Source: an uncultured virus (IMG/VR IMGVR_UViG_3300031088_000469)
Taxonomy: Duplodnaviria > Heunggongvirae > Uroviricota > Caudoviricetes
Virus record (IMG/VR): IMGVR_UViG_3300031088_000469
DNA: 64,000 nt
Strand: one strand, 5' to 3'
Position 1 is the stretch's first letter, and every line of letters starts with the position of its first letter. Below, piece after piece: positions 3,350 through 53,860 of this stretch. Below the pieces are notes generated by a model. That model was not told where the DNA came from and ran no database searches. It saw only the letters and a list, made by a program, of their open reading frames with translations. Position numbers and translations under genes: made by a program.

Positions 3350-4843
3350 TTGTCTATTGCTAACCGCGTACCCACAGCCATTGTCGATAAGAATGGCAAG
3401 CACACAACCGTGCATCGCTCGCCCGAGGGCATGAACGACATCAAGAGTAGGATCGCAAAGATCGCCGCGCCCCAGGCTGTCGAAGTCTCTTCCATTGATG
3501 ATGAGCCAGATTGGGACAGAGCAAGTCTTCCTACTCAGGAGTACACAATCAATTCAGCCACGGTGGGTAAGTTCGAGCACATCATCGAAAAGGCTAACAA
3601 CCGATTGACACGAAGCGGTGTCGAAGAGCAGTTCGAATACTCTTACCGAAACGATGTCATTGAGAACCCAGACGGGTCGCACAAAGAAGTCATCATCGCA
3701 ACGCTCAACAAGCCTGTTATCTCCAATGGTAATTGGACCTTTGCAGCAACACATGAGTTCACCCCAGCGGGCGAGGTAGTAAGCTACTTCTCATCTGAGG
3801 ATGCTTCTTTCAAGCAGCCTGAGGATGCACACTGTGACCAGTGCAACACTAACCGCCGTCGAGAGCGCGTATACACCGTAACCAACTCTGACGACGAGTC
3901 GAAGCAGATTGGTTCTAGCTGCCTTGAACTCTTCATGGGTGTCAAGCCAGAAGGTCTATGGTCTCTAAGTGACACCAAGATTGAAGAGTCGCTTTCTGAG
4001 CTTGAATCCCTATCCTTGGGCAGCAGAGATGGTGTTACCTATCCTCTTGAAGACATCATCGGAGTCGCTCTACAAGCAAGCAATAACGGTAAGGATTACG
4101 TCGCAAAGAGCAGAGGCACAAAGGACAACCCTCCCACTGCATACGCTGTTGAAATGAAGATGCAGGAAAAGCGCAATCCAGACACCTTTGACAAGAAGGC
4201 AATCCAGTCTGTCATCGACTACATCGGCAATGTTGATTCCAACAACAGCGACTACCTTGACAACCTCAAAGCGATCTTCAAGCCAGGTGAGAATGGAGCT
4301 TTCGTCAAGAGCCGTCACATGGGTCTTGCTACATCCGCTGTTGCTGCTTGGTACAGAGAGAACAACCAGCGAGAAGAGAGGGAAGCCAAGCCTCCTGTCA
4401 AGCAAGAATGGCTGGGTGCGAAGGGTGACAAGATTGAAAAGCCCATGACACTCACCCTAGAATTCCGTAAAACCTTCTCAGGCGAGTATGGAGAATCAAC
4501 ACTCATGGTGTTCCGAGATCAAGACAATAGGCTTATCAAGTGGGGCGCAAGCAACCCTCCCGATGTCTGGGAAGGCGGCAGTATCGATGTCGGTCGCGTT
4601 ACGGTCAAAGAGCAAGCAATCTACAAGGATGACAAGCAGACTGCCATCATCAGACCGAAGGTGAACGGCGTTATCGATTCGGGTAATTACCCCGAATGGG
4701 TAGCTTACGACAAGGTAAGAGCACACGTTCAAGGTCTTCCCTCCGCTGAGGTTCAGTCTGTACTTGAGAAGTTCGAAGCGACCGGAAGTGTCGAGGGCAA
4801 AAGAGCCTTCCTTGCTAGTCTCCAAAGCACTCCATCTTCGTAG
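3350..4843 (+). CDS. DKNG-leader protein with Zn-binding motif and C-terminal OB-fold-like region
   Basis: TTG 3350 after AGGAGG; AIVDKNGKHTTVHR; CDQC...GSSC; C-terminal G.KG......YG....F.D....W pattern. Confidence 0.75.
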   Translation: MSIANRVPTAIVDKNGKHTTVHRSPEGMNDIKSRIAKIAAPQAVEVSSIDDEPDWDRASLPTQEYTINSATVGKFEHIIEKANNRLTRSGVEEQFEYSYRNDVIENPDGSHKEVIIATLNKPVISNGNWTFAATHEFTPAGEVVSYFSSEDASFKQPEDAHCDQCNTNRRRERVYTVTNSDDESKQIGSSCLELFMGVKPEGLWSLSDTKIEESLSELESLSLGSRDGVTYPLEDIIGVALQASNNGKDYVAKSRGTKDNPPTAYAVEMKMQEKRNPDTFDKKAIQSVIDYIGNVDSNNSDYLDNLKAIFKPGENGAFVKSRHMGLATSAVAAWYRENNQREEREAKPPVKQEWLGAKGDKIEKPMTLTLEFRKTFSGEYGESTLMVFRDQDNRLIKWGASNPPDVWEGGSIDVGRVTVKEQAIYKDDKQTAIIRPKVNGVIDSGNYPEWVAYDKVRAHVQGLPSAEVQSVLEKFEATGSVEGKRAFLASLQSTPSS

Positions 4844-4925
4844 CAGAGGTTGACTCTAAAATCGCAAAACTCAACTGAAGTTTACCTAGCGAATTGCGAG
4901 CAGTAGTGCTAACTTATACCCGCAC

Positions 4926-4969
4926 GTCAGGACAGCTAAACCGGCAGCACTTGGTCTAGCTGTCCTGAC
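4926..4969. repeat. 13-bp perfect inverted repeat upstream of the Rep-like gene
   Basis: GTCAGGACAGCTA-18 nt-TAGCTGTCCTGAC. Confidence 0.8.
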
Positions 4970-4992
4970 CATTTACCAAGGCTATAAAGGAG

Positions 4993-6360
4993 GTGCTCGG
5001 TACATACATGCAAGAGAACAATGTTGTAGCTCCCGAGCTAGCCCAGGAGGAAAGCATCAAGCTCTCCATTCCTAAGGTATCCTTTACCGAGTACCGAAAA
5101 GAGATTAGTTCATCTCGCAAGATACTTCGAAGCATTAGCAGTTCGTATCGAATCAGGAACTGCCAGCGATACTCCAACGGCAACACATCAGACCAGACAA
5201 TCATCGTTGATGGCTCAGGTCAGGTTGTTGAGGCTAGATTCTCCAAGTTGGCTATTTGCGGTCGTGCGTCTTGTCCTAACTGCGGTCAGATGCGAGGTAT
5301 GAAGGCTGAGCGGCAGATAGAGGCGCTTATCAAGGCAGCGCAGCACAAGGGTGGCAGAGCGCAACTTATCGTCTCTACGAGTCGCTCAGCAGCGCGGCTT
5401 GATCACGACGAGTTGATGCAGGTGCAGGCTAAGGCGTATGCGAAGTTCTTGGCTAAGATGAACGGTCGCGAGAAGTCAAAATTCAACGTCGCGGGTATCG
5501 TGCATATGCCTGAGATTAGCTACACCGAAGCAGGTATCAACCCCCATAGCAACGTAGTGATTATCTACAGTGCTCATGTTCCTGACATCACCATGAAGCA
5601 GGTTGAAGACATTTACGCCCGCATCTGGATCGACACTCACATTGCAGAGGGTCTGCCTCGACCCACTCGCAAGAATGGCGTGGTAGCTCAAGAGATATTC
5701 GACCCCACAATTGTCAGTGGATACCTTACAAAATCGTACAAGCACGGCTTTCCCCGTTCGCTGTTCAATAACGGCTGGTTCAAGGAGAACGGTGACCTAG
5801 ACGACTCTGGTAATGGGAATGTACGAAACCCCCATGACATCTTGCGTCTCATCAATGGCAACCAAAAGCTCCGCAAGTTCTTTATCAACATGGACAAGCA
5901 GCAAGAGATTGTGCGGCTGGGAGGTCTGGAATTTGGGCTACTCAATAAGCAGGACGGCAGTATCACCGAACTAGACAAGCTGCCCAAGATCATTCGTCAC
6001 TGGTACGACTACGAGACAGCCACCAAGGGCAAGAACATCATCTCCGTGACCAAAGCAGTTCCTGATTCAGAACGTAGCAACGAGCAGTTCTGGGCAGAGG
6101 TTCATGAGATGGCTGAGGAATCCATGCGCGCGCCAAGCGATGACAGTCGAGTAACTATCACAGTTTCGTATGACCTACAGAAGTGGGTTGAATCCAGAAG
6201 TAGCGTGGATGATCTAATCATTGCTCTCAACTCTGCTGCGCTCTCAATAGAGCCTTCTGAGAACACCGAGGAATCCATCAGGACCGCTTTGAGCGCGGCG
6301 ATGGATAGCTGGGAAGAACGCAAAGGAAAGCCCCTCAGAGAGGCTCCTATCGCCGCCTAG
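4993..6360 (+). CDS. rolling-circle Rep_1/HUH-like protein with a degenerate HUH motif
   Basis: CG...CPNC Zn motif; E.SY...GINPHSNVVI at the motif 2 position; GYLTK motif 3 (YxxK). Confidence 0.6.
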   Translation: MLGTYMQENNVVAPELAQEESIKLSIPKVSFTEYRKEISSSRKILRSISSSYRIRNCQRYSNGNTSDQTIIVDGSGQVVEARFSKLAICGRASCPNCGQMRGMKAERQIEALIKAAQHKGGRAQLIVSTSRSAARLDHDELMQVQAKAYAKFLAKMNGREKSKFNVAGIVHMPEISYTEAGINPHSNVVIIYSAHVPDITMKQVEDIYARIWIDTHIAEGLPRPTRKNGVVAQEIFDPTIVSGYLTKSYKHGFPRSLFNNGWFKENGDLDDSGNGNVRNPHDILRLINGNQKLRKFFINMDKQQEIVRLGGLEFGLLNKQDGSITELDKLPKIIRHWYDYETATKGKNIISVTKAVPDSERSNEQFWAEVHEMAEESMRAPSDDSRVTITVSYDLQKWVESRSSVDDLIIALNSAALSIEPSENTEESIRTALSAAMDSWEERKGKPLREAPIAA

Positions 6361-7184: not shown

Positions 7185-8276
7185 TTACTTGAAGATTGAG
7201 CTATCGAATTTCTTCTCGAACAGAGGAATGCTGTCTTTGTCCTCACGCTTTAGCTTAGCTACTACCTTGTCGTGCATTGTGCTTAGCGCCTCATCCTCAG
7301 ATTGACCTCTCTTTGCCGCCAGAGCGGTAAGTAGAGTTCTCATGTCGGAGATCTTCTTGGATGCCCATTCATCTCTTGCCGCGTCCGCACCAAGGTCTCT
7401 TTCGGTGACATCAAGGTAGGTAAAGTTGTGCATGATGTTGTCAACTAGTTCCATCTCGGCAGCACGCTCGGTCTTGATAACCGTGTACTTGTCAAGACGC
7501 AATGGCGTTCCATCAGGATTGGTAATGGACTTAGCGAGCTTAGCCGCATCAGCAGCAGCCTTCTTCTCAAAGCGCGCTTGACGATCAGCTTTCTGCTGTG
7601 CTCTTGCTGGCGTGTCCATCTTGCTAGGTCGATTGGTGGTGTCTACGGGCGCATTAGGGAAACAGAATGTGCAGGCTTCCTCGCCAGCATCAGCAACAAT
7701 TTCATCATCGGTGGAACCCGAACGATCTGCATGCCAGTGGAACTCAGTGGAGCTATTGCATGAACTGCAATGCATGCTGGTGTGTACGTGACCATTGCTG
7801 TTGGTCACCTGATAGAAACGACTCCACCCGCCACGAGCGGTAAACTCAGCCTCATAGGGTTCTGCCTCCATTTTGACATCATCGAGCAAAGCCCTCTCTT
7901 GCTCAATCTGGTTTTCAAGATCAGCAATCGTCTTCTGGTACCTATTTGCGTAGTACCCATCTTTGTCCTCTACGCCTCTTGCCTGGAGGTTCTGTAACTC
8001 TCGTGCGGTATGTGCGCGATATGACTCAATGCTTCCCTGAGCGCTCGAAATCTTGTTCATGTGCGTAAACATGCGCTGATAGATCTCCGCGAGCGGTACG
8101 TCGATATCAGCGGGAGCATCATGCTCAAAGGGGCGAGCCTGCTGAGAAGACAACTTGGGGGCGGGAGCGTTACCTAGGCGCTTACCTGTAGTGCCGTTGT
8201 CAATCTTCTTGTGACGAGTTGTCGCTACGCCATTCTTATCAACGATAGCTTCTGGTCTGGTGCTGTTGGATACCAT
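7185..8276 (-). CDS. DKNG-leader protein, coiled coil plus H/C Zn-binding motif
   Basis: AIVDKNGVATTRHKK; HVHTSMHCSSC...ACTFCFP. Confidence 0.8.
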   Translation of the reverse strand: MVSNSTRPEAIVDKNGVATTRHKKIDNGTTGKRLGNAPAPKLSSQQARPFEHDAPADIDVPLAEIYQRMFTHMNKISSAQGSIESYRAHTARELQNLQARGVEDKDGYYANRYQKTIADLENQIEQERALLDDVKMEAEPYEAEFTARGGWSRFYQVTNSNGHVHTSMHCSSCNSSTEFHWHADRSGSTDDEIVADAGEEACTFCFPNAPVDTTNRPSKMDTPARAQQKADRQARFEKKAAADAAKLAKSITNPDGTPLRLDKYTVIKTERAAEMELVDNIMHNFTYLDVTERDLGADAARDEWASKKISDMRTLLTALAAKRGQSEDEALSTMHDKVVAKLKREDKDSIPLFEKKFDSSIFK

Positions 8277-8345: not shown

Positions 8346-8879
8346 ATGGCAGAACGACTTTACCCCGACCGACAAAGATGCAAGAAGTGCAAGAAGGGTT
8401 TACAAGATACACCGGTAGTAGACGGTCTGTTTTGTTCATACTCGTGTGCAAAGATACCCCGCCCCTCCGATGATGTCGAAAAGGCACCGAGGAATTGTAA
8501 GCGTCAGGTCAATGGTTCCTGGGGATTCAAGACACGATTCAAGTACGAAGGTGAAGTGCCCGCCAAATGGCGAAATGACCCTGCGACCAACATTTACCTA
8601 TGTGATTACTGCCACAACCTACACATCGGACACAATGCGCCAGTAGCAAAAGAAGAGGCGACCCTACACCGCGCTGTTACTAGCTTGGAGCAACTAGGTT
8701 CAGTAATCCAAAGACACCGTGAGTCCAAAAACATCACGAGGAAGCAAGTAGCGACCAAAATCAAGGTTCCCATTATCCGAGTCACCGAGATCGAAGAGGG
8801 CAGAAAAGAAGCGAAAGCCGAAGTCCTGTTCGCTGTTGTGCGTGAACTTCGGCTTTCGCTGGAAATCAAATCTCGTTAG
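8346..8879 (+). CDS. Zn-finger plus XRE-type HTH protein
   Basis: CKKC, CSYSC and CDYC..LH motifs; C-terminal LG..I...R....TRKQVA.......VTEIEEG HTH. Confidence 0.7.
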   Translation: MAERLYPDRQRCKKCKKGLQDTPVVDGLFCSYSCAKIPRPSDDVEKAPRNCKRQVNGSWGFKTRFKYEGEVPAKWRNDPATNIYLCDYCHNLHIGHNAPVAKEEATLHRAVTSLEQLGSVIQRHRESKNITRKQVATKIKVPIIRVTEIEEGRKEAKAEVLFAVVRELRLSLEIKSR

Positions 8880-9346
8880 AGGTACGGAAGGGCAATCTTT
8901 GCTGCATCCATCTTGGTCTCGACTGCTGCATCAGAAGAACGCATAGCGTATCCTCTCGAATCGCTCTGGTTGCTCGTACCATTACCAAGGTAGAGGCTGC
9001 CTCCAACTCGACCATCTACGTTTGAAACGAGACCAGAAACGACTTCAGCCGAAACCTGAACCTCATCAAAGGCGACGAACTTGGTGCCGTTCTTCTCAAC
9101 GGCGTAGATGTTCTTACTTACCTCTGTGACGGTCGCATCGGAGAAGTCGTTACTGTTGATCGACAAGCGAGCAAGCAGGTCGCGTACAGCTTCCTTTGCC
9201 CTCTGCTCAGGTGCCGTCTGCTGAGGGCGAGAAGTAGGGAATGGAATTGGTCGAGCGAAGGGCTTTGGTGCCTCGCCAACCTTCTTGTTGACCGTGGTGT
9301 GCTTGCCGTTCTTATCGACAATGGGGGTAGAAACAACTGTTGACAT
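8876..9346 (-). CDS. DKNG-leader hypothetical protein
   Basis: PIVDKNGKHTTVNKK; AAAGG RBS. Confidence 0.75.
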   Translation of the reverse strand: MSTVVSTPIVDKNGKHTTVNKKVGEAPKPFARPIPFPTSRPQQTAPEQRAKEAVRDLLARLSINSNDFSDATVTEVSKNIYAVEKNGTKFVAFDEVQVSAEVVSGLVSNVDGRVGGSLYLGNGTSNQSDSRGYAMRSSDAAVETKMDAAKIALPYL

Positions 9347-15835: not shown

Positions 15836-16426
15836 CTAGAAGTCGATTGACTTGGTACGAACCCTCTCTAGCTGATTTTCTGCTTCGTCGTTACTAGCGT
15901 AGGTGGTAACGATAGCCGGTTCGCCAGTGTAAGAACCTACATCGTTGGTTTTGAACGAGACTAGTCGATTGTCAATGTCATCTCCGTCGCCAGCAATGTA
16001 GCTAATCCTGAAGCCCCCAGGAATTCTTTCTGCAACCGGATCGGTAGCAATGCCAGCCATGTATAGCTCAACCGGGGTTACAGTAGCTACTAAGCCGCCC
16101 TCGCCTTGCTCTTTGAAGTAGATGAGTCCACCCTCTTCATATCCAGCATTGATTGTTCCATTACTGTTGTAGCTCCCGACATATCCTTCTGAGATGAGGT
16201 CTCTTTCACGGTACGAAATATGCGGCTTTACACCCTCTCCGATACTTACTTCTTCAACCGAAGATGCGGTTGAAAATGCGGTCGCACCTGAACTAGGCGG
16301 CTTACTTACTGCACCTGTACGACCTTCATGCTGCGAAGCATGCTTCCCCGGTGCCCTATAAACGGTACGAGTATGACCGTTTACGTCTACTGTTGTGCTC
16401 TGAATGAGATGTGATCTGTCTGACAT
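15836..16426 (-). CDS. DxNG-leader protein, paralog of 16450-17052
   Basis: TTVDVNGHTRTVYR; shares NGTINA, AGIAT.P and G.YTG.P with its neighbour. Confidence 0.8.
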   Translation of the reverse strand: MSDRSHLIQSTTVDVNGHTRTVYRAPGKHASQHEGRTGAVSKPPSSGATAFSTASSVEEVSIGEGVKPHISYRERDLISEGYVGSYNSNGTINAGYEEGGLIYFKEQGEGGLVATVTPVELYMAGIATDPVAERIPGGFRISYIAGDGDDIDNRLVSFKTNDVGSYTGEPAIVTTYASNDEAENQLERVRTKSIDF

Positions 16427-16449: not shown

Positions 16450-17052
16450 TTATACGCTACGGAGTGCGTTTAGGGATTCTTCGGCGGCTAGGTTGCTTTC
16501 AAAGGTATTCAGTGTGCCTGGCTTGCCCGTGTAGTCGCCAGCCTTATCGATGCTGAAAGTAACTGTGTGGTTATCGTTATCTTCTTCGTCTCCTACGATG
16601 TAGGTGATTTCATACCCTTCTTCATTGGGTTTGACGACAGGTGGGGTAGCAATACCTGCATGGTAGTGGTCGTAAGGCACGGCAGTGAGAACTAATTTCT
16701 CATCACCCGGCTCTACAAAATACGTAATGCCATCATCAGCTACGAGAGCGTTGATGGTTCCGTTATCGTTGGGGAGGTTACCAGAATCCCACTCTTGATA
16801 CATGTCGATGTAATCCTGAGCGTACTCAACGCGGTTCATTTCAGCCCATTTCGGATCGAAGCCATCTGTATCAAGCGGGAACTCCTGAGTGTGGTCAGGC
16901 TCTATCTTGACTAGTCGTGAAGAAATTGGAGCACCGATACCACCCGCACGATTTTCTTCCATAGGTACGGCGGAGTTGGGAGAACGGTAGACGGTCTTGG
17001 GGTGTCCATTGACATCGATGATAGTGTCTCGAATGAGGTGAGAACCAGGCAT
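16450..17052 (-). CDS. DxNG-leader protein, paralog of 15836-16426
   Basis: TIIDVNGHPKTVYR; AAGGAG RBS. Confidence 0.8.
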   Translation of the reverse strand: MPGSHLIRDTIIDVNGHPKTVYRSPNSAVPMEENRAGGIGAPISSRLVKIEPDHTQEFPLDTDGFDPKWAEMNRVEYAQDYIDMYQEWDSGNLPNDNGTINALVADDGITYFVEPGDEKLVLTAVPYDHYHAGIATPPVVKPNEEGYEITYIVGDEEDNDNHTVTFSIDKAGDYTGKPGTLNTFESNLAAEESLNALRSV

Positions 17053-19041: not shown

Positions 19042-19118
19042 TGGTCGGAATGACAAGATTTGAACTTGCGACCCCCTGTCCCCCAGACAGGTGCGCTACC
19101 AAGCTGCGCCACATTCCG
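19042..19118 (-). tRNA. tRNA-Pro(GGG), CCA encoded
   Basis: Cloverleaf, anticodon GGG. Confidence 0.9.
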
Positions 19119-19147
19119 TTAGCCCTTTTGACGATAAGGGCATCGTT

Positions 19148-19223
19148 AGGGTGATCGACGGGAATTGAACCCGCAACCAACAGGTTCACGACCTGCCGCT
19201 CTGCCAGTTGAGCTACGAAAACC
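19148..19223 (-). tRNA. tRNA-His(GUG), two acceptor mismatches
   Basis: Cloverleaf, anticodon GUG. Confidence 0.75.
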
Positions 19224-19335
19224 ATACGCCAGGAAGCCTGGCTCTTGCTGTGTGAGCTTGTATTAGCCACTCACAGGCTCTGTGCGCCTCTCTCAGCGCC
19301 TAACATGTAGATGCTGAACAACGAGCCACAGAGAT

Positions 19336-19501
19336 TGGTGGAGCGCCGTAGACTCGACCTACGGTAACGGTACATCGCTGCCCGCTATTTCTCTCTTTGG
19401 CACTACTGCATTCGACATGATGTAGGTTACCGAAAGAACTGATGCCGCGTTCATGACTACTCCTGTTGTCAACAGGAAGGTTTCATGGACTCATTCACCC
19501 C
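19336..19501 (-). ncRNA. 166-nt RNA with Ala-type acceptor (G3-U), T-like arm and CCA end
   Basis: 5' GGGGUG pairs with 3' CGCUCC-ACCA; CCGUAG-GUCGAGU-CUACGG arm; two long internal hairpins. Confidence 0.55.
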
Positions 19502-19503
19502 TG

Positions 19504-19577
19504 TCGGAATAGGGGGAGTTGAACCCCCGACCTCTCGCCCCCGAAGCGAGCGCGCTACCAAGCTGCGCCATATTCCG
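19504..19577 (-). tRNA. tRNA-Pro(CGG)
   Basis: Cloverleaf. Confidence 0.9.
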
Positions 19578-19933
19578 TAAATCGCAACCAAGCCAGTCCG
19601 GTTTAACAGCCTTCATGGAAGCAGGGTTATGATCCCTGAACTATGCTCTTGATCACTGGTGGATTATCACCACTCTTGTCACTTGGGCGACCAGTCAAGT
19701 CACTTGCTGTCTTCCACGATGGGTACGCAGTATTCGGAATCTATACCTCACAAATCAGCAAGTCCAGCGAACACCCGTTAGGGCACTACCAGCAAGCTTA
19801 ATCGTCTCATCCGCTTGTGATTCGAGCCAGGCACTCAGTCTTCATCACCAGACATCGTTCTTTCCACGGTGAACGACCACCCTCATCGACTCATTTCCTT
19901 GATGACTAATCAAATCTGTCGATGCCTCCCCAG

Positions 19934-20006
19934 TGCCCCGTACTGGACTCGAACCAGTGACCTACTCTTTAGGAAAGAGGTATTCTATCCGCTGAACTAA
20001 CGGGGC
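19934..20006 (-). tRNA. tRNA-Arg(CCU)
   Basis: Cloverleaf. Confidence 0.9.
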
Positions 20007-20012
20007 ATATCG

Positions 20013-20483
20013 CTATACCGACTTCTGCCAAATCATGAAGTCGGTACCAACGTAGTAAACAACGTGCGGGTCCACATGAGTTGCCGTGAAACCAGACGTA
20101 GAGAGAATGTGTTGCATAGATGTTGAACCAGGATGAACACTTGCGGTGAAGTGCTTCGTCCCAGATGCCATAGCATCTTCAAGCAGCCTATCAACTATCA
20201 ATCGACCGATACCGTGACCCCTAGTGGATACGTAGACACCCGAGATATATCCGGACGTTACGTCAATGAAGCCGGTACCGACAATCCGCTCACCATCTCT
20301 CGCGATGAGGCAGATACTTGAATCCAATTTTGCAAGTACATCAGTAGGGCTGTACTCACCATCAAGCCATGCTCCAATATTGGGATGGTCAAGATGGGGC
20401 GAAGCGAGCGAAACACTGGCTACATGCTCGATAACAGAGTGAACATCTCCGACATTCATCGGAGTAATTATCAGATTGACCAA
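20013..20483 (-). CDS. GNAT acetyltransferase
   Basis: LIARDGERIVG...YISGVYVSTRGHGIGRLIV acetyl-CoA motif A. Confidence 0.8.
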   Translation of the reverse strand: MVNLIITPMNVGDVHSVIEHVASVSLASPHLDHPNIGAWLDGEYSPTDVLAKLDSSICLIARDGERIVGTGFIDVTSGYISGVYVSTRGHGIGRLIVDRLLEDAMASGTKHFTASVHPGSTSMQHILSTSGFTATHVDPHVVYYVGTDFMIWQKSV

Positions 20484-20511
20484 TGCAGCTTTCCATTTCG
20501 TTTACTTCGAG

Positions 20512-20584
20512 TGGATCTAAGGGGACTCGAACCCCTGACCCCCTGCATGCCATGCAGGTGCGCTACCAACTGCGCCATAGACCC
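20512..20584 (-). tRNA. tRNA-Ala(GGC)
   Basis: Cloverleaf, G3-U70. Confidence 0.9.
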
Positions 20585-20585
20585 G

Positions 20586-20657
<72 letters not shown>

Positions 20658-20904
20658 ACAACCGCAACCAAGGCTGCGTTGTGCATGTTGTCTAGACTAC
20701 TAGACCACGGTGTACCACCGGCTGATTTTTGATAAGACATTCTGCGCTAACAGCAAGTCAACGGGAATCAGAACCCGAAGAACCCAGAAGCTTCCACACG
20801 TAGGTGAGAAGACTTCTGAAAGTAGCAAGATTTTGTGTGAGTCCATGTGCACTGGGTTCTCATTTTGTACTTGCTGTTACCGAGAGATCCTGTCCCCGGC
20901 TCTG

Positions 20905-36286: not shown

Positions 36287-36403
36287 ATACATGCATTTAG
36301 GGCTGCTTGTTCACCACGATGCAAAGGAAATTCCCTTAGGCTTGACGGCGGTTCGTCACTCTGTAAGAGGCATGTCGTAGGAGCCTCACCCTTGTGTTAT
36401 GCG

Positions 36404-36477: not shown

Positions 36478-36636
36478 AGGTGGTTATTGAGTCTCTTCAA
36501 TAACCCCTCTGGGACTGACACCAGAGAATTGGGTCGTGATACAAGGTCTAATCCTTGCTAGGGCGTATACAACTCCATGACACCTCGCGGCTTATCAGCG
36601 GGTTCATATCACAACAATGAGGTAGCAAGCTACCAG

Positions 36637-36711
36637 CGTCTATGACGGGACTCGAACCCGCGACTTCCACCGTGACAGGGTGGCACTCTAAACCGACTGA
36701 GCTACACAGAC
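36637..36711 (-). tRNA. tRNA-Asp(GUC)
   Basis: Cloverleaf. Confidence 0.9.
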
Positions 36712-36717
36712 ATGTTT

Positions 36718-36790
36718 TGACGAAGGCGAGACTCGAACTCCCATGCACGAGTTTTCAGACTCGCTGGCTGACCAATTAGCCCACTTCATC
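36718..36790 (-). tRNA. tRNA with 8-nt anticodon loop UCUGAAAA (Phe GAA-like)
   Basis: GAUGAAG/CUUCGUC acceptor; GGCU/AGCC D stem; GCGAG/CUCGU stem. Confidence 0.7.
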
Positions 36791-36965
36791 GGGTGAGGAT
36801 TTCTCCCTCCCTTTTGCATCGAGTAGAACCACACCACGGTCCTATACGCGCTCTCACGCCGCATTCTGGTTTATGCTAACTCGAAACCATGACATCCTGC
36901 ACTGCTAGTTTCTGATTGGGGTACCTCCGCACAGTCTTGTTCAGCACATTCCGCTTTAGGTTTTG

Positions 36966-37035
36966 TGAGATTTGCTGATTTGAACAGCGTCTCCCACCTT
37001 CTCGGCGGGCGCTCTAACCATTGAGCTATTATCTC
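36966..37035 (-). ncRNA. tRNA-like RNA with non-canonical anticodon loop
   Basis: D and T arms intact; 6-bp stem with GAGAA loop; acceptor only 5 bp. Confidence 0.5.
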
Positions 37036-37140
37036 TGTTCCTTTTTGTGATGTGAACAGCTTCTAACCGCTCCTGTGAGAAGCGGCACCACGAAACCTAA
37101 CCATCATTTCATCCTGAGCCTCACAGACCCAGGACTACTG

Positions 37141-37213
37141 CTCCCCCACGTGGACTCGAACCACGAACCATCTCATTAACAGTGAGACGCTCTGCCAATT
37201 GAGCTACAGAGGA
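37141..37213 (-). tRNA. tRNA-Asn(GUU)
   Basis: Cloverleaf. Confidence 0.9.
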
Positions 37214-37311
37214 ATATCCTTTGGTATACGGAAGGAAAGTCCGTGTTCAAGCCTCACTACTGCCTTCGACGAGAGGTCTCGCAGGGATGATGAACATTAT
37301 CGGCTATACCG

Positions 37312-37385
37312 CGACTCTAACGGGACTTGAACCCGCGACTTCCACCTTGACAGGGTGGCACTCTAACCAACTGAGCTATAGAGCC
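37312..37385 (-). tRNA. tRNA-Asp(GUC)
   Basis: Cloverleaf. Confidence 0.9.
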
Positions 37386-37514
37386 AAACGTTGTCAAGCC
37401 TTTGTGACCGCTCTGCGATCACTAGTACACCGTGCCACGGCGCTTGACTGTTACCCCTTATGCTTTGGACACTTACCTTGTACTTCGGTTCGTGCTACCC
37501 GCCACAATGGCATG

Positions 37515-37587
37515 TGCTTCCCGAGAATTTCGAAATCTCGACCCTCCGGTTAAGAGCCGGATGCTCTATCCTCTGAGCTAGAGAAGC
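37515..37587 (-). tRNA. tRNA-Lys(CUU)
   Basis: Cloverleaf. Confidence 0.9.
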
Positions 37588-37926
37588 GTATGGTTGACGG
37601 TGTGGAATTCTCACCCACGAAGCTTCGTTCCTGAATCTACACGCTACTAGGAGTACGACTTCCTTTCACCCTTTCCTCAGTACTATGAAGCGCCGGTTTT
37701 ACCAACCGGTGTATTTGTTTACGTCTTTACATAACCGTCTTTCCCATTACTGGGAGGGATCGACCGTGTTAACCCGGTATGTGATTCCCTTTATCCATTG
37801 CTGGACATTTATGTGCGCGATACGAAGTCTGGGGCTGGCTATCATTATCCCCTTATCACTTCCGCCTTTTCGAGCCAGTACGGAACTTTGTATCGCTGTC
37901 CCCAACTACGCGCGTAGTTGAGTCTG

Positions 37927-38009
37927 TGGCAAGTGAGGGATTCGAACCCCCGAAGTCTATTGACGGCTGATTTACAGTCAGATCCCTTTGGCCGCTTGGG
38001 TAACTTGCC
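37927..38009 (-). tRNA. tRNA-Tyr(GUA)
   Basis: Cloverleaf with variable arm. Confidence 0.9.
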
Positions 38010-38103
38010 ATGCACGCAAACAGGGAGCGACCCTATCCACTTCGAACATTACGCTAGTGTTCGCTACGTCTAGTTTCTCTCGCCGGAGTGACTAGCAAAG
38101 AGG

Positions 38104-38185
38104 TGGTAGCTGAGGGATTCGAACCCCCGCAGGCTTAGCCGTCGCGTTTACAGCGCGGTGTCGTTGACCACTTGACTAAACTACC
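38104..38185 (-). tRNA. tRNA-Tyr(GUA)
   Basis: Cloverleaf with variable arm. Confidence 0.9.
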
Positions 38186-38436
38186 ATTACTGATGAGAAC
38201 GACAACCAAGTCCTTCATTTTGAGCCATTGGCTATATGACGGCATATTGGCTGCCGCCCTCATCAAACCTTGTCGTGCCTCCCTCGCTCCGAAGAGCTTG
38301 TGATTATACGATAAGGAGTGGAATAGGTTTTGGCGACCTATTCCCTTTCTTTATCCACTGTGTAGTTGCCAAGATGGGTAAGTTTCTACCCACATAACCT
38401 TCCTAGCATCTTCGTTTCCTCCGCTAGGGGGTTTTG

Positions 38437-38509
38437 CAGGGATGACAGGACTTGAACCTGCAACACCCGGTTTTGGAGACCGGTGCTCTACCAATTGAGC
38501 TACATCCCT
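38437..38509 (-). tRNA. tRNA-Trp(CCA)
   Basis: Cloverleaf. Confidence 0.9.
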
Positions 38510-39141: not shown

Positions 39142-40161
39142 CTACGAGAGAGTTACGTCCACCTTCGAGAAGTCCTGCTTGGTGTGTGAACCTCGGCGGG
39201 TGATTGTGGCTGCATCTAGCGCACGATCCTTGTCAAGTGTATAGAGGAACGAGTCGTCCTCGTTGAGAGCCATCCAGACTGTCTGGGAAGGCTTAGCCTT
39301 GTAACCACCACCGGCAAAGGCATCTTCAAATCCTCCGCTAGCTTTCTGTTGGAACATACGACCGTAGTTGCTGTCCATGTTCTCTCGTCCATGCTCAAAA
39401 GAAGCGATAGCTGGTGCAACGTTGGGACCAACAAAGTAGACCGTACGTTCAACGCCATTTATTTCAGCCTTGTGCTCGGCATACTGAAGCTCAGGTGCCT
39501 CTCTCATCTGACGAATAGCCTTGGGGATAGCCCCGTACTCATATTCACTGGAACCCATGTACTCAAATTCGTAGTAGGCACCGAATGTATCTGGCTTGTC
39601 CGTGTCGTCCTTGGTCTTTCGATTGAGAACCTGGGAGGTGTAAAAGAGATTACTTTCATAGAGAGAGTCACTCTTGAAGTCAACAGACTTCGTGACCGGA
39701 CCATTGACTATATCGTCAGTTGTGGTATCGACAGACTCAAATCCGGGAACAGAAGGAACGGCGAAGTCGCTGTAAACTTCATCCTCACGACCAGTAATGG
39801 TCATGATCTTCTCAACAATCTCACGCTTCTTTTCTGCGTCTGATCCAAAGTGGTTATCCATTGAGTTGAACAATGCGTCAGAGAACTTGCCAAAGTAAGG
39901 AGCATCAGATTCCAATAGGCGCTTTACATTTCCCCAGTCATAGTCCACATTTCGCTTCTTGATGGTTGCACCCTTGTCCTTGTACAACTCACCAAGAGCA
40001 GTACGAACCGCACGCTGGTAGGGAGGGGCGGGTGGCTTAGACGCGACCGCGCTCACACGCGATGCTGCCGAAGAGACACCCTTGTTGAGGTTCTTGTGCA
40101 CGGTGGTGCTCTTACCGTTCTTATCAACAATCGACGTTGCTACAGTGTTTGGTGAAGTCAT
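39142..40161 (-). CDS. DKNG-leader hypothetical protein
   Basis: SIVDKNGKSTTVHK; FEYMGSSEYEYGAIP. Confidence 0.8.
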   Translation of the reverse strand: MTSPNTVATSIVDKNGKSTTVHKNLNKGVSSAASRVSAVASKPPAPPYQRAVRTALGELYKDKGATIKKRNVDYDWGNVKRLLESDAPYFGKFSDALFNSMDNHFGSDAEKKREIVEKIMTITGREDEVYSDFAVPSVPGFESVDTTTDDIVNGPVTKSVDFKSDSLYESNLFYTSQVLNRKTKDDTDKPDTFGAYYEFEYMGSSEYEYGAIPKAIRQMREAPELQYAEHKAEINGVERTVYFVGPNVAPAIASFEHGRENMDSNYGRMFQQKASGGFEDAFAGGGYKAKPSQTVWMALNEDDSFLYTLDKDRALDAATITRRGSHTKQDFSKVDVTLS

Positions 40162-41058: not shown

Positions 41059-41670
41059 TTAGCTAAGTACGATTACTTGGTGCTTAGCCTTCGTCTCTTC
41101 TATCTCAACTGGGTTGGAACCTTGAACGTATACCGTTCCAAAAGCATTGTCTTCGGGGACAACCACTACGGAAGCGTCATCCTTGGAAACCATGTCTGCA
41201 CCTACACCAGCCGACAGAATTACCGTCACGTGTGAAGATCCACTGGCTGTAATCTCGGGGGTGTGACGCTCTCCATAGGTCTTGATGACAGCGTTACCGG
41301 CACTCACATTGATGCGTGCCTTCTTCATCGTATCGAGATGAATAAGAACAGGGCTATCTACGCAGTCAAGGTCTAACGAACCATCATCGTTCAGAGAGTA
41401 GTCGGTAATCATGAACAGGGACGACTCGTCTGTAGGCGTGTCCGCCGCTACCTTATTGATAGCCCGTTCATTACCGGCTGGTCTGATAGACACATAACGA
41501 CCATCAGAGTATGCGTTGAGATCGAAATCATCTTCACCAATAGCCTTCTGGGGCGTAACAAAGCTCACTCTCTGAGCAGCGCTAGACTTATCAGGTCTTT
41601 TGTACACGGTCGTCAGCCGACCATTTATATCGACAACCCTCTGAGCGTTATAGGGATGAGCGACCGCCAT
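41059..41670 (-). CDS. DxNG-leader protein with beta-helix-like C-terminus
   Basis: RVVDINGRLTTVYKR. Confidence 0.75.
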   Translation of the reverse strand: MAVAHPYNAQRVVDINGRLTTVYKRPDKSSAAQRVSFVTPQKAIGEDDFDLNAYSDGRYVSIRPAGNERAINKVAADTPTDESSLFMITDYSLNDDGSLDLDCVDSPVLIHLDTMKKARINVSAGNAVIKTYGERHTPEITASGSSHVTVILSAGVGADMVSKDDASVVVVPEDNAFGTVYVQGSNPVEIEETKAKHQVIVLS

Positions 41671-42488
41671 CAGTATGCAGCCACCGAGTCAGCGTATAGC
41701 TCGAACGTCAGTTCTTTGTCAACTGGCGGAATACGCTTCGACTCATCCTTCTGCTTGGTTCCCTCGGTGAAGAAGGAACTCATCGTGTCTTTCCAATCCT
41801 GTACAGCGGAATCAGAATCACTACGTCTCGACTTTGTTGTGTCACCGAAGATCACAAACGAGAACGGCGTGTCCTTTTCGGGTTCTAGCTCCAACGTCTC
41901 GCCTCGAACATCTACAGCCCAAGCATATGCTGCTAGATCACGAGCATGAGTCATCTCTTCATCAGATAGCTCGCGACTGAACTGAAGTCGGAATTGATAT
42001 GGTTCTGACGGGTAGTTGTTATCGGTTAGACGGGTGTATACAACACCATCGTGCTCGACCTTATCGAACACCTCTCCACTTTGGACTCTACTGTCTGAAC
42101 TACTAGGAACTATGACGGGCGCTGCACCAACAGAAGGCTCGGAGGTATCCAGTGCTGCCCTCAAAGAATCAACTGAGTAGCCGCCAAAGTTCTCACTGAA
42201 GACCTGATCGTATGAAGTCTTCAATCCTGTGTCAGAGTAATCGCCGCTGGCAACAACCTCGGCGTTGACTAGATCTACAAAGTCCTCATCCTGGGACAGA
42301 GGCAGTCTGTTTCTGACAATCCAGTTCTCGATTTCAGCGGAGTTGATAGATGTCTGCTGAGGGGGCACTGCCGTATTGGGAATCCGGTTGCGACCTGAGA
42401 GAGAAGAAACACCCTTATCGACGGACTTCCAGACAGTCTTCTGGTGACCGTTTCGGTCGTTAATGATGTGTGCGACTCTACCTTGCAT
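41670..42488 (-). CDS. DxNG-leader hypothetical protein
   Basis: HIINDRNGHQKTVWK; GGAG RBS. Confidence 0.75.
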   Translation of the reverse strand: MQGRVAHIINDRNGHQKTVWKSVDKGVSSLSGRNRIPNTAVPPQQTSINSAEIENWIVRNRLPLSQDEDFVDLVNAEVVASGDYSDTGLKTSYDQVFSENFGGYSVDSLRAALDTSEPSVGAAPVIVPSSSDSRVQSGEVFDKVEHDGVVYTRLTDNNYPSEPYQFRLQFSRELSDEEMTHARDLAAYAWAVDVRGETLELEPEKDTPFSFVIFGDTTKSRRSDSDSAVQDWKDTMSSFFTEGTKQKDESKRIPPVDKELTFELYADSVAAY

Positions 42489-44930: not shown

Positions 44931-45791
44931 TCAGTTAGTTCCCACCACAGAAGCAATCTCTGCCGGTGCGCCCGCAGACAACGGCTGCCATTCAACGAAC
45001 TCAGCAAACACTATCAGTCGCTCGGTGTTGCTCCATTCCGGCCAGCAGGTTGTGAGAGTCAAGGTCTTTCGCTCTGCAACCTTTGCGTCTTCAACTGTGC
45101 TTCCTGCCTGGTTAGCGATAGGTGCAATAACAGAGACATCACTTGGCTTGACAATAGAGTGCTCTTCCTTCATCTCATATGTGTAGTAACCATCCTTGGT
45201 CTGGACATAAATCTTGTCCCCAGGAACTACCGTTTTGAGATTGGCAAAGACGGTATTGCGATGACCAGCTAGGGCAAAATTGCCATACTGACCAGGCATC
45301 TGAGATCCCTTATAGTGACCAATACCTTCATCGAGCACTGCGCTACCAGTGTCTTGCAAAACGACCCTCTTGTAGTTAGCATCTAGCCTGGGAATGTACA
45401 GAACTCCAAACTTTTCTGCTGAGGGAACTACCGAGCTATCACTCAAGGGAGGATTCTGTGGGTCAAAGTCAGCAGCACCGGCAGGTTCTGTAACACCGAA
45501 ATTCTCGATCACTTGGTTAGCACTAGACGACTGCTGTGTAGCCGTAACAGCGTCAAGAATGACGAACTTCCACAGGAAGAACAGTCCCGCTATCACAGCG
45601 AACGTGATTAGTAGCTCGGCGGCAACTGTGATAGCTAGGTCTACCCAACTTTTAGGACGTTTGGAAGCTGGCTTGTTACCGCCAATCCTCTCTGACTGAA
45701 TAGCTTTACGCCTCTCTCCCGGCGTGCCCCTCTGATTACTAATGATGGAATCAAAGTCCCCACTAGGAAAGGAGTTGGTAGGTGATGTCAT
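44931..45791 (-). CDS. class E sortase
   Basis: TM anchor; GNFALAGHR; TLTLTTC.P......R catalytic H-C-R. Confidence 0.9.
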   Translation of the reverse strand: MTSPTNSFPSGDFDSIISNQRGTPGERRKAIQSERIGGNKPASKRPKSWVDLAITVAAELLITFAVIAGLFFLWKFVILDAVTATQQSSSANQVIENFGVTEPAGAADFDPQNPPLSDSSVVPSAEKFGVLYIPRLDANYKRVVLQDTGSAVLDEGIGHYKGSQMPGQYGNFALAGHRNTVFANLKTVVPGDKIYVQTKDGYYTYEMKEEHSIVKPSDVSVIAPIANQAGSTVEDAKVAERKTLTLTTCWPEWSNTERLIVFAEFVEWQPLSAGAPAEIASVVGTN

Positions 45792-52791: not shown

Positions 52792-52918
52792 GTAACGGTT
52801 GCTCCTTGTTGGTTCTGTATAACCGTAACAGCATGGTCACTCCAAATCAAATTGACAAGCAAACGTTTCGACTGTAGAGTTGAACTTGAAGGTTACAACG
52901 ACCAAGGAGAAACCTCAC

Positions 52919-53158
52919 ATGCATATCCTCAAAACACCTCGCGCCATCCTCAATAGGTTTGGCATGTCTGTTATGACAGGTGGAATCAAACCGGTTATGG
53001 TATCGCAGTTCAACGCCGCGACAGGTTGGACCAAGACATCGCACAAGCGTCTTACCTACCTCACCGTATACAAGCTTCGAAGGACTGGGGTGACCCACGT
53101 TTCTGTGCGCGCTGGTTTGCAGCGCGCCGATTTTGTGGTGACAGACCTATTGGTCTAG
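52919..53158 (+). CDS. small basic hypothetical protein
   Basis: AAGGAG RBS; TTGACA promoter upstream. Confidence 0.6.
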   Translation: MHILKTPRAILNRFGMSVMTGGIKPVMVSQFNAATGWTKTSHKRLTYLTVYKLRRTGVTHVSVRAGLQRADFVVTDLLV

Positions 53159-53188
53159 TTAGTCACAGGTGCGTGTCATAATAAGCTC

Positions 53189-53860
53189 ATGAGCAACCTA
53201 GTACCCAAGAGTATTGTAGACAAGAACGGCGTAAGCACCACTCGTAACATCAATCCCGATAAGGGTGCCGCCTCCAAGAATGATCGTGCTGCCAAAGTTG
53301 GTGCACCTCCCAAGACAAAAGACGAACCTCTACGCAAGCCGTTAGAGCGCATTCAGATGGCTTCTAATTCGTACACTGTGGGTCATTGGATTCACGCCAA
53401 GAACGTTTACGATTTCAATGCACCGTACCAGAGGGGTTCTGTCTGGGATGAAGACAGAAAGCGTAGTCTGATCTCATCACTCCTTCAAGGCATTCCTACA
53501 GGCGCAGTAATCCTCAACAAGCGACCGTTCAATAGCGGTCCTCATCTTGGTGCAGTAGTTGATGGAAAGCAGCGTATCGAGGCTGTTCTAGATTTCATCG
53601 AAGACAGGCTTGAAGTTCCGGGAGCGTGGTTTGACGAAGAGGCTCTACCTGATTTCAAAGAGAACATTCGATTCAGCGATCTAGCACCTGGCTTCCAGTC
53701 CTCATTCCAATACACCACCATTCTTCCTTCAATGGAGGCAAGTGTAGAAACCATTGAAGAGGAAGCAGAAATCTTCCTGCGCATCAACCAAGGAGGCGTT
53801 GCACAGGAAGATTCTGTAATGGATAGAGCAAAGGGTATCGCTTCTACTACTAGCCGTTGA
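53189..53860 (+). CDS. DKNG-leader DUF262 (ParB-like/GmrS-like) protein
   Basis: SIVDKNGVSTTRNIN; YQRG.VW....K..LI.SLL.GIP; VVDGKQR; IF.RIN.GG. Confidence 0.85.
   Translation: MSNLVPKSIVDKNGVSTTRNINPDKGAASKNDRAAKVGAPPKTKDEPLRKPLERIQMASNSYTVGHWIHAKNVYDFNAPYQRGSVWDEDRKRSLISSLLQGIPTGAVILNKRPFNSGPHLGAVVDGKQRIEAVLDFIEDRLEVPGAWFDEEALPDFKENIRFSDLAPGFQSSFQYTTILPSMEASVETIEEEAEIFLRINQGGVAQEDSVMDRAKGIASTTSR

Follow-up and report, generated by a model that had tools for sequence, protein, structure and literature searches.

A conserved N-terminal hairpin tag on diverse proteins of giant uncultured mobile elements looks like a new protein address label

The internal proteins of phage T4 carry a capsid-targeting sequence (CTS) of ~10 aa. 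Payloads of contractile injection systems have leaders with little sequence conservation, the known signals of conjugative type IV secretion are C-terminal or internal and not N-terminal, and polymorphic toxins join an N-terminal trafficking part to a variable C-terminal toxin domain. As described in the available portions of PMC11495950 and 10.1101/2023.11.13.566157, payloads of the contractile injection systems PVC and Afp have a non-hydrophobic N-terminal leader of ~50 aa and are loaded with the aid of an ATPase. The available part of PMC5512222 describes polyvalent proteins, in which 2-15 domains are fused in one polypeptide that is proposed to accompany the DNA into the new cell, as well as conjugative type IV substrates (ArdC from pSa and RP4's TraC1 primase), anti-restriction proteins with a C-terminal zincin that are transferred full-length. 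The pMEGA megaplasmids of Enterobacteriaceae carry as many as 208 tRNAs as well as genes for pili and secretion. About 80% of their genes are hypothetical, and they contain multi-copy protein families; the available portion of that text does not contain the term "N-terminal", and hence describes no shared leader (10.1101/2025.09.30.679422).

Here we describe a tag that is found on hundreds of genes in related giant uncultured mobile DNA elements and looks like a new protein address label. In the window (the whole stretch of 64,000 nucleotides that was analysed), nine ORFs begin with a module of ~45 aa in which hhDxNGxxxTVxK is followed by R-h-x-x-h-x-A-P. All nine copies reported in the first-pass annotation were recovered at the same positions:

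3350..4843, plus strand: tagged gene 1; tag ~3350-3484; cargo in phrog_2319
7185..8276, minus strand: tagged gene 2; tag 8142-8276, DKNGVxTTRHK variant; His/Cys-rich cargo matching phrog_15500 and phrog_2433
8876..9346, minus strand: tagged gene 3; tag 9212-9346; 156 aa; cargo unannotated
15836..16426, minus strand: tagged gene 4; tag 16292-16426, DVNGH variant; cargo paralogous to that of gene 5
16450..17052, minus strand: tagged gene 5; tag 16918-17052; cargo paralogous to that of gene 4; promoter-like box upstream
39142..40161, minus strand: tagged gene 6; tag 40027-40161; cargo unannotated; TAGAAT 6 nt upstream of the ATG
41059..41670, minus strand: tagged gene 7; tag 41536-41670; cargo unannotated; abuts gene 8
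41670..42488, minus strand: tagged gene 8; tag 42354-42488, NDRNGH variant; cargo unannotated; promoter-like box upstream
53189..53860, plus strand: tagged gene 9; tag 53189-53323; cargo GmrSD_N/DUF262, ParB-like, E 2.7e-15

The ORF of gene 1 was listed as 3305-4843; AAGGAGG precedes the TTG at 3350, and the orthologue in G001, a 202.7-kb relative, begins MSIANRV. The true start is probably this TTG, which the first-pass annotation also used, and not the ATG at 3305. Among the cargo folds named in the same annotation, DUF262 was confirmed: gene 9 encodes GmrSD_N (E 2.7e-15). Its description of nine unrelated proteins holds for the nine tags but not for the cargos, which form eight families because the genes at 15836 and 16450 are paralogues (38% identity, E 1e-27).

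An HMM of the 20-aa core gave exactly nine matches against the six-frame ORFs (E 8e-13 to 1.5e-9; next, 0.77). A 150-sequence HMM likewise gave nine matches in the window at E <=4e-10, with the next six-frame match at E 5.9 and a best E of 0.97 in the reversed-sequence control. The motif lies at the ORF start in 9/9 window copies. Identity to the tag of gene 1 is 25-49%, with D, N, G and T all invariant, and the invariant D, N, G, T and V residues are encoded by differing synonymous codons; conservation is thus at the level of the peptide, as had been claimed from the window alone. In the database alignment, the second conserved motif follows 13-15 residues downstream of the first. The linker has R in 120/143 and P in 130/149 aligned sequences, which bears out the basic linker with Arg and then Pro that was originally noted. 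The pre-hairpin residues M-S-N-L-x-P-T-P are also conserved, and the median net charge of the tag is +4. AlphaFold2 predicted a confident β-hairpin (strands 6-12 and 18-24; block pLDDT 94) and then a short helix, in support of the earlier guess of a hairpin, and the pTM of 0.33 goes with an exposed hairpin without a globular core. As modelled, the tag starts with a free N-terminus of 9-13 residues and continues through a β-hairpin closed by a D-x-N-G turn and a Ser/Ala-rich spacer to a short R-h-x-x-h-x-A-P segment.

The tag was found in 439 protein clusters in an exhaustive search of 1.84 billion proteins (E <=1e-3; clusters at 50% identity), and no match was found in Pfam, the PDB, or sequenced phages and plasmids. 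The conserved Asp lies at residue 10-14 in 145 of the best 150 database sequences and at residue 9-15 in 154/167 tagged ORFs from 152 metagenome loci. G001 has 18 tagged genes, with 18/18 copies at the ORF start; contigs of 0.41-0.81 Mb likewise encode tagged proteins, and tagged genes can form tandem arrays, such as three in locus L057. Full-length homologues in the window or G001 are lacking for 134 of the best 150 tagged proteins. Cargo homologues without the tag occur in 72 phage records, and no match starts before residue 71 in the 30 records that were listed. The HMM scan had been set beforehand as a test, and it returned what was predicted, namely many strictly N-terminal matches on unrelated cargos. 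Among the best 150 proteins, only P0023 has internal copies of the tag. This protein of 770 aa has a fused-looking form with three hairpins, two of them internal, and counts against a strictly N-terminal signal in that the hairpin can also sit internally.

The 222 cargos fall into 105 BLAST clusters, with one cargo per protein and a median size of 192.5 aa. They are small, soluble and strongly acidic: pI is below 6 in ~96% of 142 cargos (median 4.63) versus ~61% of untagged G001 proteins, and a transmembrane segment is predicted in 0/142 cargos versus 47/150 untagged G001 proteins. Any Pfam match at E <=1e-3 was obtained for only 15/196 tagged proteins scanned. Above Pfam's own cut-offs are ArdcN (41 bits) in one tagged G001 protein with an ArdC-N plus zincin peptidase (ArdcN + MPTase-PolyVal) architecture, ART-PolyVal (68 bits) and Arr-ms, while ArdA (26.1 bits against a cut-off of 27), MPTase-PolyVal and the G001 match to Tox-PLDMTX (a papain-like toxin fold) fall below them; with these three key matches below cut-off and so few proteins matched, the effector picture rests on a small minority of cargos. 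GNAT is also among the annotated cargos, and GmrSD_N occurs in three tagged proteins, although its G001 orthologue matches only phrog_1583. The annotated cargos appear to be anti-restriction and host-modifying domains, some probably aimed at host defences. In the available part of PMC5512222, such domains are assigned to proteins that are injected or transferred with DNA.

Two known leader types were rejected. A Sec or Tat signal peptide, also dismissed in the first-pass annotation, does not fit a polar and basic consensus with no hydrophobic run (h-region) and a predicted hairpin in place of a helix. A type IV prepilin (class III) leader does not fit proteins that lack a hydrophobic helix of ~20 residues and cargos without transmembrane segments; the pilin-like proteins of the element do carry a hydrophobic N-terminal helix.

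An N-terminal trafficking part followed by a variable, toxin-like C-terminal domain is also what polymorphic toxins have, and tagged proteins could be weapons sent into or onto competitors by a pilus-like or VirB4-like machine, independently of DNA transfer. The Tox-PLDMTX, ART and Arr-like cargos fit this, as do tandem genes like those of L057. However, ArdA and ArdC are anti-restriction factors and not toxins, and no immunity-like small gene recurs among the neighbours: 236 non-tagged neighbour ORFs fell into 197 clusters, the largest of which are antisense artefacts or false-positive loci. We consider a role as weapons highly unlikely.

A box, TGTCnn-N10-13-TAnnnT, lies upstream of 15/27 tagged genes versus 7/182 others (p 7e-11). 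It looks promoter-like and, shared as it is, would make the tagged genes a co-regulated set. The tagged genes sit among replication or early-type genes, outside any late structural operon. Two tagged window genes have a -10 box 6 nt from the ATG, and the TAGAAT of gene 6 at this distance suggests an mRNA of the leaderless type. With a leaderless look, the first codons could matter for initiation, and the shared start might have no addressing role: it could be a cassette for recombination or expression, for instance a translation-friendly start spread from gene to gene, or a tag for degradation that shortens protein lifetime. Yet codons differ at every conserved residue, the tags have diverged to 25-49% identity to the first while D/N/G/T are invariant, and the family spans 439 clusters, which together point to old purifying selection on the peptide and not to recent copying of DNA. 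A second conserved motif and a predicted fold also exceed what an initiation context needs, and we regard this as the most improbable of the readings.

Alternatively, the hairpin may bind an abundant hub within the element-carrying cell and so concentrate or time the effectors without export. Candidate hubs are a nucleoid protein on the element's AT-richer DNA, RNA polymerase, a protease adaptor, a replication compartment, or a chaperone, such as the element's J-domain protein (window 2-814, near tagged genes) with host DnaK. An exposed hairpin without a globular core suits β-strand addition to a partner, and the internal hairpins of P0023 imply that the hairpin does not strictly require a free N-terminus. 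In their solubility the cargos resemble cytoplasmic proteins, and the shared box fits an ordinary early regulon; small, acidic, soluble proteins with a common promoter fit ordinary cytoplasmic early genes equally well. One would expect the position of a binding domain to vary, yet the Asp is almost fixed at residue 10-14 (145/150) and the residues before the hairpin are themselves conserved. It is also hard to name one hub for ArdA, ArdC, ADP-ribosyltransferases, ParB-like proteins, GNAT and ~100 unannotated families. Docking of this kind is possible, if rather doubtful.

The remaining gene content bears on where tagged proteins might go. The following features were identified in the window:

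19042..38509, minus strand: 67 tRNA genes and a tmRNA (33962-34350), with interspersed HNH and endonuclease VII genes
44931..45791, minus strand: class E sortase (199 bits against a cut-off of 160)
53850..61321, minus strand: distal end of a membrane-machine operon, which begins with PilB/PilT/PilC in G001
53850-54692, minus strand: DsbA-like thioredoxin within the membrane-machine operon

This operon also encodes three paralogous proteins of ~170 aa and three unannotated proteins of 398-454 aa. Besides the type IV pilus and sortase, the element encodes an FtsK-like translocase (an FtsK/SpoIIIE-family protein with 7 TM segments) and a VirB4-like ATPase (AAA_10, 1.6e-12) with an adjacent 12-TM protein. 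A 755-aa neighbour of this ATPase looks ParA/TadZ-like and not like a coupling protein; no VirD4-type coupling protein or clear relaxase was recognised in the element, and a Replic_Relax match was weak (4e-4).

Much of the content is phage-like (tRNA array, tmRNA, RtcB, NAD salvage, ribonucleotide reductase, ThyX, SbcCD and many HNH endonucleases), and G001 is a virus record in IMG/VR. The element could be a huge phage whose tag docks effectors on the prohead core or scaffold, so that they are packaged, perhaps trimmed after A-P, and injected with the DNA like T4 internal proteins and Alt. Such capsid targeting has the architecture of the T4 CTS, where diverse anti-defence proteins share a short N-terminus (PMC3012670, available portion), and among the cargos, the ADP-ribosyltransferase and the anti-restriction factors recall T4 Alt and IPI* (PMC5512222, available portion). 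However, searches covering 266 kb (window and G001) recovered no head, portal, terminase or tail PHROG among 45 window ORFs (E <=1e-5) or 133 G001 ORFs (59 and 74; E <=1e-6), and nothing in six-frame scans for Phage_capsid, Terminase_6C, Terminase_6N and TerL_ATPase. G001 seems to cover only part of a contig of 654 kb, and the remaining ~450 kb could hold a virion module. Contigs of 0.64-0.81 Mb match or exceed the largest known phage genomes, and the placement of tagged genes among early-type genes with promoter-like boxes, in no late structural operon, also argues against capsid targeting, which we judge unlikely. The original proposal of an address tag that loads diverse effectors into a phage head is thus supported in its first part by >100 cargo clusters and by the anti-restriction cargos, and not in its destination, with no capsid, portal, terminase or tail gene found in the window or G001.

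The explanation that we prefer, tentatively and with somewhat less than even confidence, is that the module is a modular N-terminal address tag by which effectors are delivered via the element's transfer machinery. We infer this trafficking role, a receptor and a destination from the tag, its position and spread, the diversity of its cargos and the upstream box, and consider the envelope apparatus of the element itself (FtsK-like translocase, VirB4-like ATPase, type IV pilus) a likelier route than a capsid. A giant mobile element would attach the tag to co-regulated small, soluble, acidic effectors; a putative element-encoded receptor would read it and hand the effectors to the transfer machinery; and the effectors would enter the next host cell together with the element DNA, where they could blunt restriction and other defences before any gene expression in the new host. 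A fuller version, conceivable but doubtful, is a new delivery route in capsid-less elements of 0.4-0.8 Mb in plant-associated Actinobacteria: hairpin-tagged acidic effectors of >100 families would pass N-terminus first through the DNA-transfer apparatus (FtsK-like translocase and/or pilus-type machine) and reach recipients ahead of or along with the DNA. If true, conjugation-like transfer in Gram-positive bacteria would gain its first N-terminal translocation signal to be defined by sequence, and the tagged proteins would supply a ready catalogue of new anti-defence factors.

Like the T4 CTS of internal proteins and Alt, the tag is a short N-terminal peptide that alone is common to diverse anti-defence proteins, strictly N-terminal in T4 (PMC3012670, available portion), and the cargo types overlap (ADP-ribosyltransferase and anti-restriction factors). 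It differs in having no detectable sequence relation and in being ~45 aa, bipartite and a predicted hairpin; the cargos here are acidic, and capsid, scaffold and prohead protease genes were not found in 266 kb. With PVC and Afp payloads, as far as the available texts describe them, it shares a non-hydrophobic N-terminal leader common to unrelated payloads, but the tag has invariant positions, and no PHROG or Pfam family for a contractile injection sheath, tube, baseplate or loading AAA ATPase was found in the element. One tagged G001 protein has exactly the ArdC-N plus zincin architecture of ArdC of pSa, whereas the tag is N-terminal, unlike the signals of conjugative type IV substrates, and the element has no recognised VirD4-type coupling protein or clear relaxase. 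The pMEGA megaplasmids, in the available text, are likewise giant extrachromosomal elements with a large tRNA set and pilus genes, although of a different host group and lineage. Finally, the repertoire of ART-PolyVal, MPTase-PolyVal, ArdC-N, ArdA and ParB-like domains is that of polyvalent proteins (Iyer, Burroughs, Anand, de Souza, Aravind 2017; PMC5512222, available portion), but here the effectors are separate and small, each has its own tag, and only P0023 looks fused. Functionally, the tagged set would be a polyvalent protein taken apart, with every effector holding its own ticket.

The tag, an N-terminal module of about 45 residues, was located by translation in all nine window ORFs (left coordinates 3350, 7185, 8876, 15836, 16450, 39142, 41059, 41670 and 53189), with its motif inside the first 10-27 residues of each. 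A regular expression applied to six frames of the window returned these nine tagged ORFs and no others. An HMM of the 20-residue core recovered the nine with E values of 8e-13 to 1.5e-9 (next match, 0.77), and an HMM of the 150-member family did so at E ≤ 4e-10 (next match, 5.9; best reversed-sequence match, 0.97). The shared N-terminal leader described in the first-pass annotation was thus verified by translation, six-frame pattern matching and two HMMs. Its description of the nine proteins as unrelated is amended: the nine tagged ORFs stand, but the cargos (the remainder of each tagged protein) of 15836 and 16450 are paralogues, so the window holds eight cargo families and not nine. The first tagged gene most likely starts at TTG 3350 rather than ATG 3305, because AAGGAGG precedes the former and the orthologue in G001, a 202,737-bp relative, starts MSIANRV. 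Codon choice differs at each conserved tag residue (GAT/GAC, AAT/AAC, GGC/GGT/GGA and four Thr codons), so conservation acts on the peptide, as had been claimed. The same variation opposes the DNA copying expected of a recombination or expression cassette, which, together with a degradation tag, is the least probable reading considered here.

G001 and the window share DNA pieces of 73-90% identity (~19 kb summed), and G001 contains 18 tagged ORFs with the motif at the ORF start in every one. When 1.84 billion representative proteins were searched exhaustively with the tag profile, 439 matched at E ≤ 1e-3, and in 145 of the best 150 the match starts within the first 6 residues, as would be expected of the strictly N-terminal leader that had been proposed. 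In four of the five exceptions the protein is extended upstream, and an internal Met stands directly before the tag. The remaining exception, P0023 (770 aa), has three hairpin cores (4-23, 189-210 and 430-449), two of them internal, and resembles three tag-cargo units fused together. P0023 also contains many short D-x-x-G/G-F-D-type repeats, and its terminal repeats resemble the LRV cargo of another tagged protein, P0037. A degenerate DNA pattern matched at least 151 metagenome stretches, many contigs having several matches. Together with L033 from the viral collection, the 151 metagenome-scan loci make up a set of 152 that encodes 167 distinct tagged ORFs; 154 have a Met start and Asp at residue 9-15, and the other 13 have no Met in the 16 residues upstream. 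A few of the pattern loci proved spurious, arising from an unrelated family of Clp-fold protease-like proteins (L196, L198-L201 and L093), in which the internal words EDKNGFMTTVHK match the DNA pattern by chance, a caution against motif-only scans. Six pattern matches in species-representative genomes were likewise all false as tags (five internal in the Clp-fold protease-like family, one in an Ig-like repeat), and are therefore uninformative on the host. No recurrent neighbour gene was found around the 152 loci, and the lack of one of immunity type argues against interbacterial toxin export, which we consider highly unlikely.

The tag sequence family is undescribed in the libraries and literature searched. 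No family in Pfam or PHROGs covers it, its profile had no match among PDB sequences at E ≤ 10, and neither PLSDB plasmids nor GenBank phages gave a tblastn match to a 45-aa tag at E ≤ 10. Against phages, neither megablast with 15 kb of the window nor tblastn with the 39142 protein gave a match. A full-text literature search for 'IVDKNGK' found no paper, and a search for comparable giant actinobacterial elements found nothing on this lineage. In G004, another genome compared, the tag core gave only one weak match (E 0.005). G002, reached via a 55%-identical RtcB, proved unrelated (GC 66%; 6 of 197 proteins shared), and is thus of no use as a tag-free comparison.

The consensus of the best 150 database members is M-S-N-L-[VIT]-P-T-P-I-V-D-K-N-G-K-x-T-T-V-H-K-K, followed by 8-12 Ser/Ala-rich residues and then R-[VL]-x-x-[VI]-x-A-P. 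In the core, D is present in 149, N in 148 and G in all 150 of these members; in the downstream segment, 120 of 143 aligned members have the R and 130 of 149 the P. A minor variant has a coupled two-position swap (NGK...TTV to NGV...TTR), and the tag has a median net charge of +4. The beta-hairpin guessed from the window alone agrees with an AlphaFold2 prediction on the 150-row tag alignment, which pairs strands 6-12 and 18-24 (block pLDDT 94) and places helices at 29-37 (block pLDDT 68-74) and, at the beginning of the cargo, 47-55. The pTM for the tag is only 0.33, and the model describes an exposed hairpin with a short helix and no globular domain. The main rival to a transfer signal is intracellular docking on a hub. 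The strict N-terminal placement of the tag and the conserved residues ahead of the hairpin weaken this reading, which we regard as unlikely.

BLAST linked the 222 cargos of 80 aa or longer into 105 clusters, and for 134 of the best 150 tagged proteins neither the window nor G001 encodes a full-length homologue. The 3350 cargo has homologues in 72 phage records, and among the 30 listed the alignments start at query residue 71 or later, so these phage homologues are without the tag. Cargos are small, with a median length of 192.5 aa, and acidic: their median pI is 4.63, and ~96% of 142 lie below pI 6 as against ~61% of untagged G001 proteins. A membrane segment was predicted in none of 142 cargos versus 47 of 150 untagged G001 proteins. 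Only 15 of the 196 tagged proteins scanned had a Pfam hit at E ≤ 1e-3, leaving ~93% without a Pfam family, and the 39142 cargo had no usable match in the ESM Atlas. The annotated cargos were as follows.

Domains annotated in the cargos of tagged proteins
G001 123480-124523: ArdC-N (above the Pfam cut-off) and a zincin peptidase, MPTase-PolyVal (below it)
Locus L056: ART-PolyVal (68 bits, above the cut-off)
Protein P0032: Arr-type ADP-ribosyltransferase (above the cut-off)
Protein P0017: ArdA (26.1 bits against 27, below the cut-off)
Window 53189 and proteins P0010 and P0115: GmrSD_N/DUF262 (above the cut-off)
Protein P0098 and G001 17767-18357: Tox-PLDMTX (above and below the cut-off, respectively)
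Various tagged proteins: GNAT, LRV repeats, DUF7007 and DUF7226 (Pfam)

The G001 orthologue of window 53189 (50648-51301) belongs to the same PHROG, phrog_1583, by a PHROG match only. The annotated cargos correspond to the domain set described for polyvalent proteins by Iyer et al., who argue that these proteins are injected or transferred with phage and conjugative-element DNA (PMC5512222). Elsewhere in the window, 10209-10949 and 42577-43425 encode a DruA-like/Mom-like protein (Pfam DruA, 2.4e-12; phrog_1384) and a D12-class adenine methyltransferase, which possibly act in DNA modification or counter-defence.

Tagged genes also share a promoter-like box, TGTCnn-N10-13-TAnnnT, found within 90 nt upstream of 15 of the 27 tagged genes of the window and G001 and of 7 of 182 other G001 ORFs (odds ratio 31, p 7e-11), a contrast somewhat inflated because the box was derived from the same tagged genes. 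Examples upstream of tagged genes in the window are:

Window 40167-40190: promoter-like box
Window 17072-17095: promoter-like box
Window 42514-42537: promoter-like box

The upstream half-box lies ~10-13 nt from the -10-like hexamer, which is too near for a normal -35 element. Such spacing recalls activator-dependent promoters of the T4 MotA type. In two tagged genes, TAGAAT stands 6 nt from the ATG.

The element that carries these genes was characterized from the window and G001, which together include the following features.

Selected features of the carrier element
Window 33962-34350, minus strand: tmRNA, with tag ANASRNDFALAA
G001 24574-30666 (locus L022): type IV pilus set (PilB-like and PilT-like ATPases, PilC, a prepilin-peptidase-like protein and five pilin-like paralogues)
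G001 177617-180709: FtsK/SpoIIIE-family protein with 7 predicted TM segments (homologues P0177 and P0197)
G001 114277-121760 (loci L026, L027 and L192): Cas3 and type I-E Cascade (Cse1, Cas7, Cas5 and Cas6e)

The tmRNA lies in an array with 67 tRNA genes (19042-38509; 19.5 kb, minus strand only) that covers all 20 amino acids and is interspersed with HNH and endonuclease VII genes; the tRNA at 36718-36790 has an odd two-base anticodon call. The window also encodes RtcB, dUTPase, thymidylate synthase, helicases, HNH endonucleases, a class E sortase, a DsbA-like protein, DUF2637 and a J-domain protein. Two of the five pilin-like paralogues of G001 exceed 520 aa, and the pilus operon continues with membrane proteins and ends with a DsbA-like thioredoxin, its distal end corresponding to window 53850-61321. 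An AAA_10 (VirB4/TraC/HerA-type) ATPase adjoins a 12-TM protein in G001, and a ParA/TadZ-like protein is also present. The 12-TM protein and two pilus-operon proteins had no match in a PDB sequence search. The FtsK/SpoIIIE-family protein belongs to a lineage-specific family without the FtsK alpha and gamma domains, some homologues have homing-endonuclease/intein domains, and its linker region has a 260-aa paralogue encoded just upstream. G001 further encodes DnaE, DnaB, gyrase, ribonucleotide reductase, NAD salvage genes and WhiB; no Cas1 or Cas2 was found among the G001 ORFs scanned.

An identical copy of the G001 FtsK-like protein is recorded on a 654,127-bp contig, a protein identical to one tagged G001 protein is recorded on a contig of equal length, and P0017 (ArdA cargo) is likewise on a 654,127-bp contig but outside G001. 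Other tagged proteins are on contigs of 805,269, 637,428, 494,976 and 412,594 bp (the proteins behind this evidence are P0182, P0132, P0017, P0285, P0011 and P0007). Judged by these identical proteins, and by relatives on contigs of up to 805,269 bp, the 202.7-kb G001 'provirus' record seems to have been trimmed from a much larger element. We infer that the carrier is a giant element, closer to a megaplasmid than to a phage, and that its host is actinobacterial, based upon WhiB, the class E sortase, DUF2637, Atlas neighbours and leaderless-type starts. DNA near-identical to window 7150-17100 occurs in 20 public runs, which come from 14 studies that sampled phyllosphere, plants, straw, leaf litter and food, and one of them may be the source. 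No RNA run is among those listed, and one of the 20 carries a single-organism label, not a metagenome label.

The first-pass annotation had proposed loading of the tagged proteins into a phage head, or their docking on a shared scaffold or export machine. No head, portal, terminase or tail family (PHROGs) was found in 133 G001 ORFs (E ≤ 1e-6) or 45 window ORFs (E ≤ 1e-5), and four six-frame Pfam scans for virion genes found nothing. Capsid targeting is kept alive by the ~450 kb of the parent contig that lies beyond G001; with no virion gene seen in the window and G001, we rate it as improbable.

The fixed N-terminal distance, the structured and exposed hairpin and the second short downstream motif, together with more than 100 unrelated, soluble, small and acidic cargos, a shared promoter class and anti-restriction or host-modifying cargo, speak for an address tag and against a catalytic or structural domain. 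As to the address, we lean, tentatively and at somewhat less than even chances, towards a putative signal for co-transfer with the element's DNA, by a machine that is non-virion or unsettled. Effectors would then enter with the DNA, each individually ticketed, not fused as in polyvalent proteins. Co-transfer is favoured because a cell that has just been entered is where these cargo types act, and it suits both the cargo types and the element's envelope apparatus. Its weak points are that no receptor for the tag was found, that only ~8% of cargos are annotated, and that conjugative type IV secretion is not known to use an N-terminal signal. That the tag marks a genuinely new delivery route is doubtful.

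If the tag is a delivery signal, a one-line sequence rule would yield hundreds of candidate anti-defence or host-takeover proteins, all from uncultured giant mobile elements, and would indicate a transfer route for proteins via a putative receptor. Being short, predicted to fold by itself and tolerant of more than 100 cargos, the tag has properties wanted in a portable loading tag for delivery machines. The result is also relevant to the establishment of very large elements, be they megaplasmids or huge phages, in well-defended hosts. Even as a docking motif, one peptide that organizes ~9% of ORFs (18 of the 197 G001 ORFs that reach 80 aa) would amount to a new organizing principle. Among known systems, polyvalent proteins are the nearest in cargo, although the tagged proteins are not members, and the N-terminal signal peptides of contractile-injection payloads are the nearest in leader type, although the tag is not one of them.
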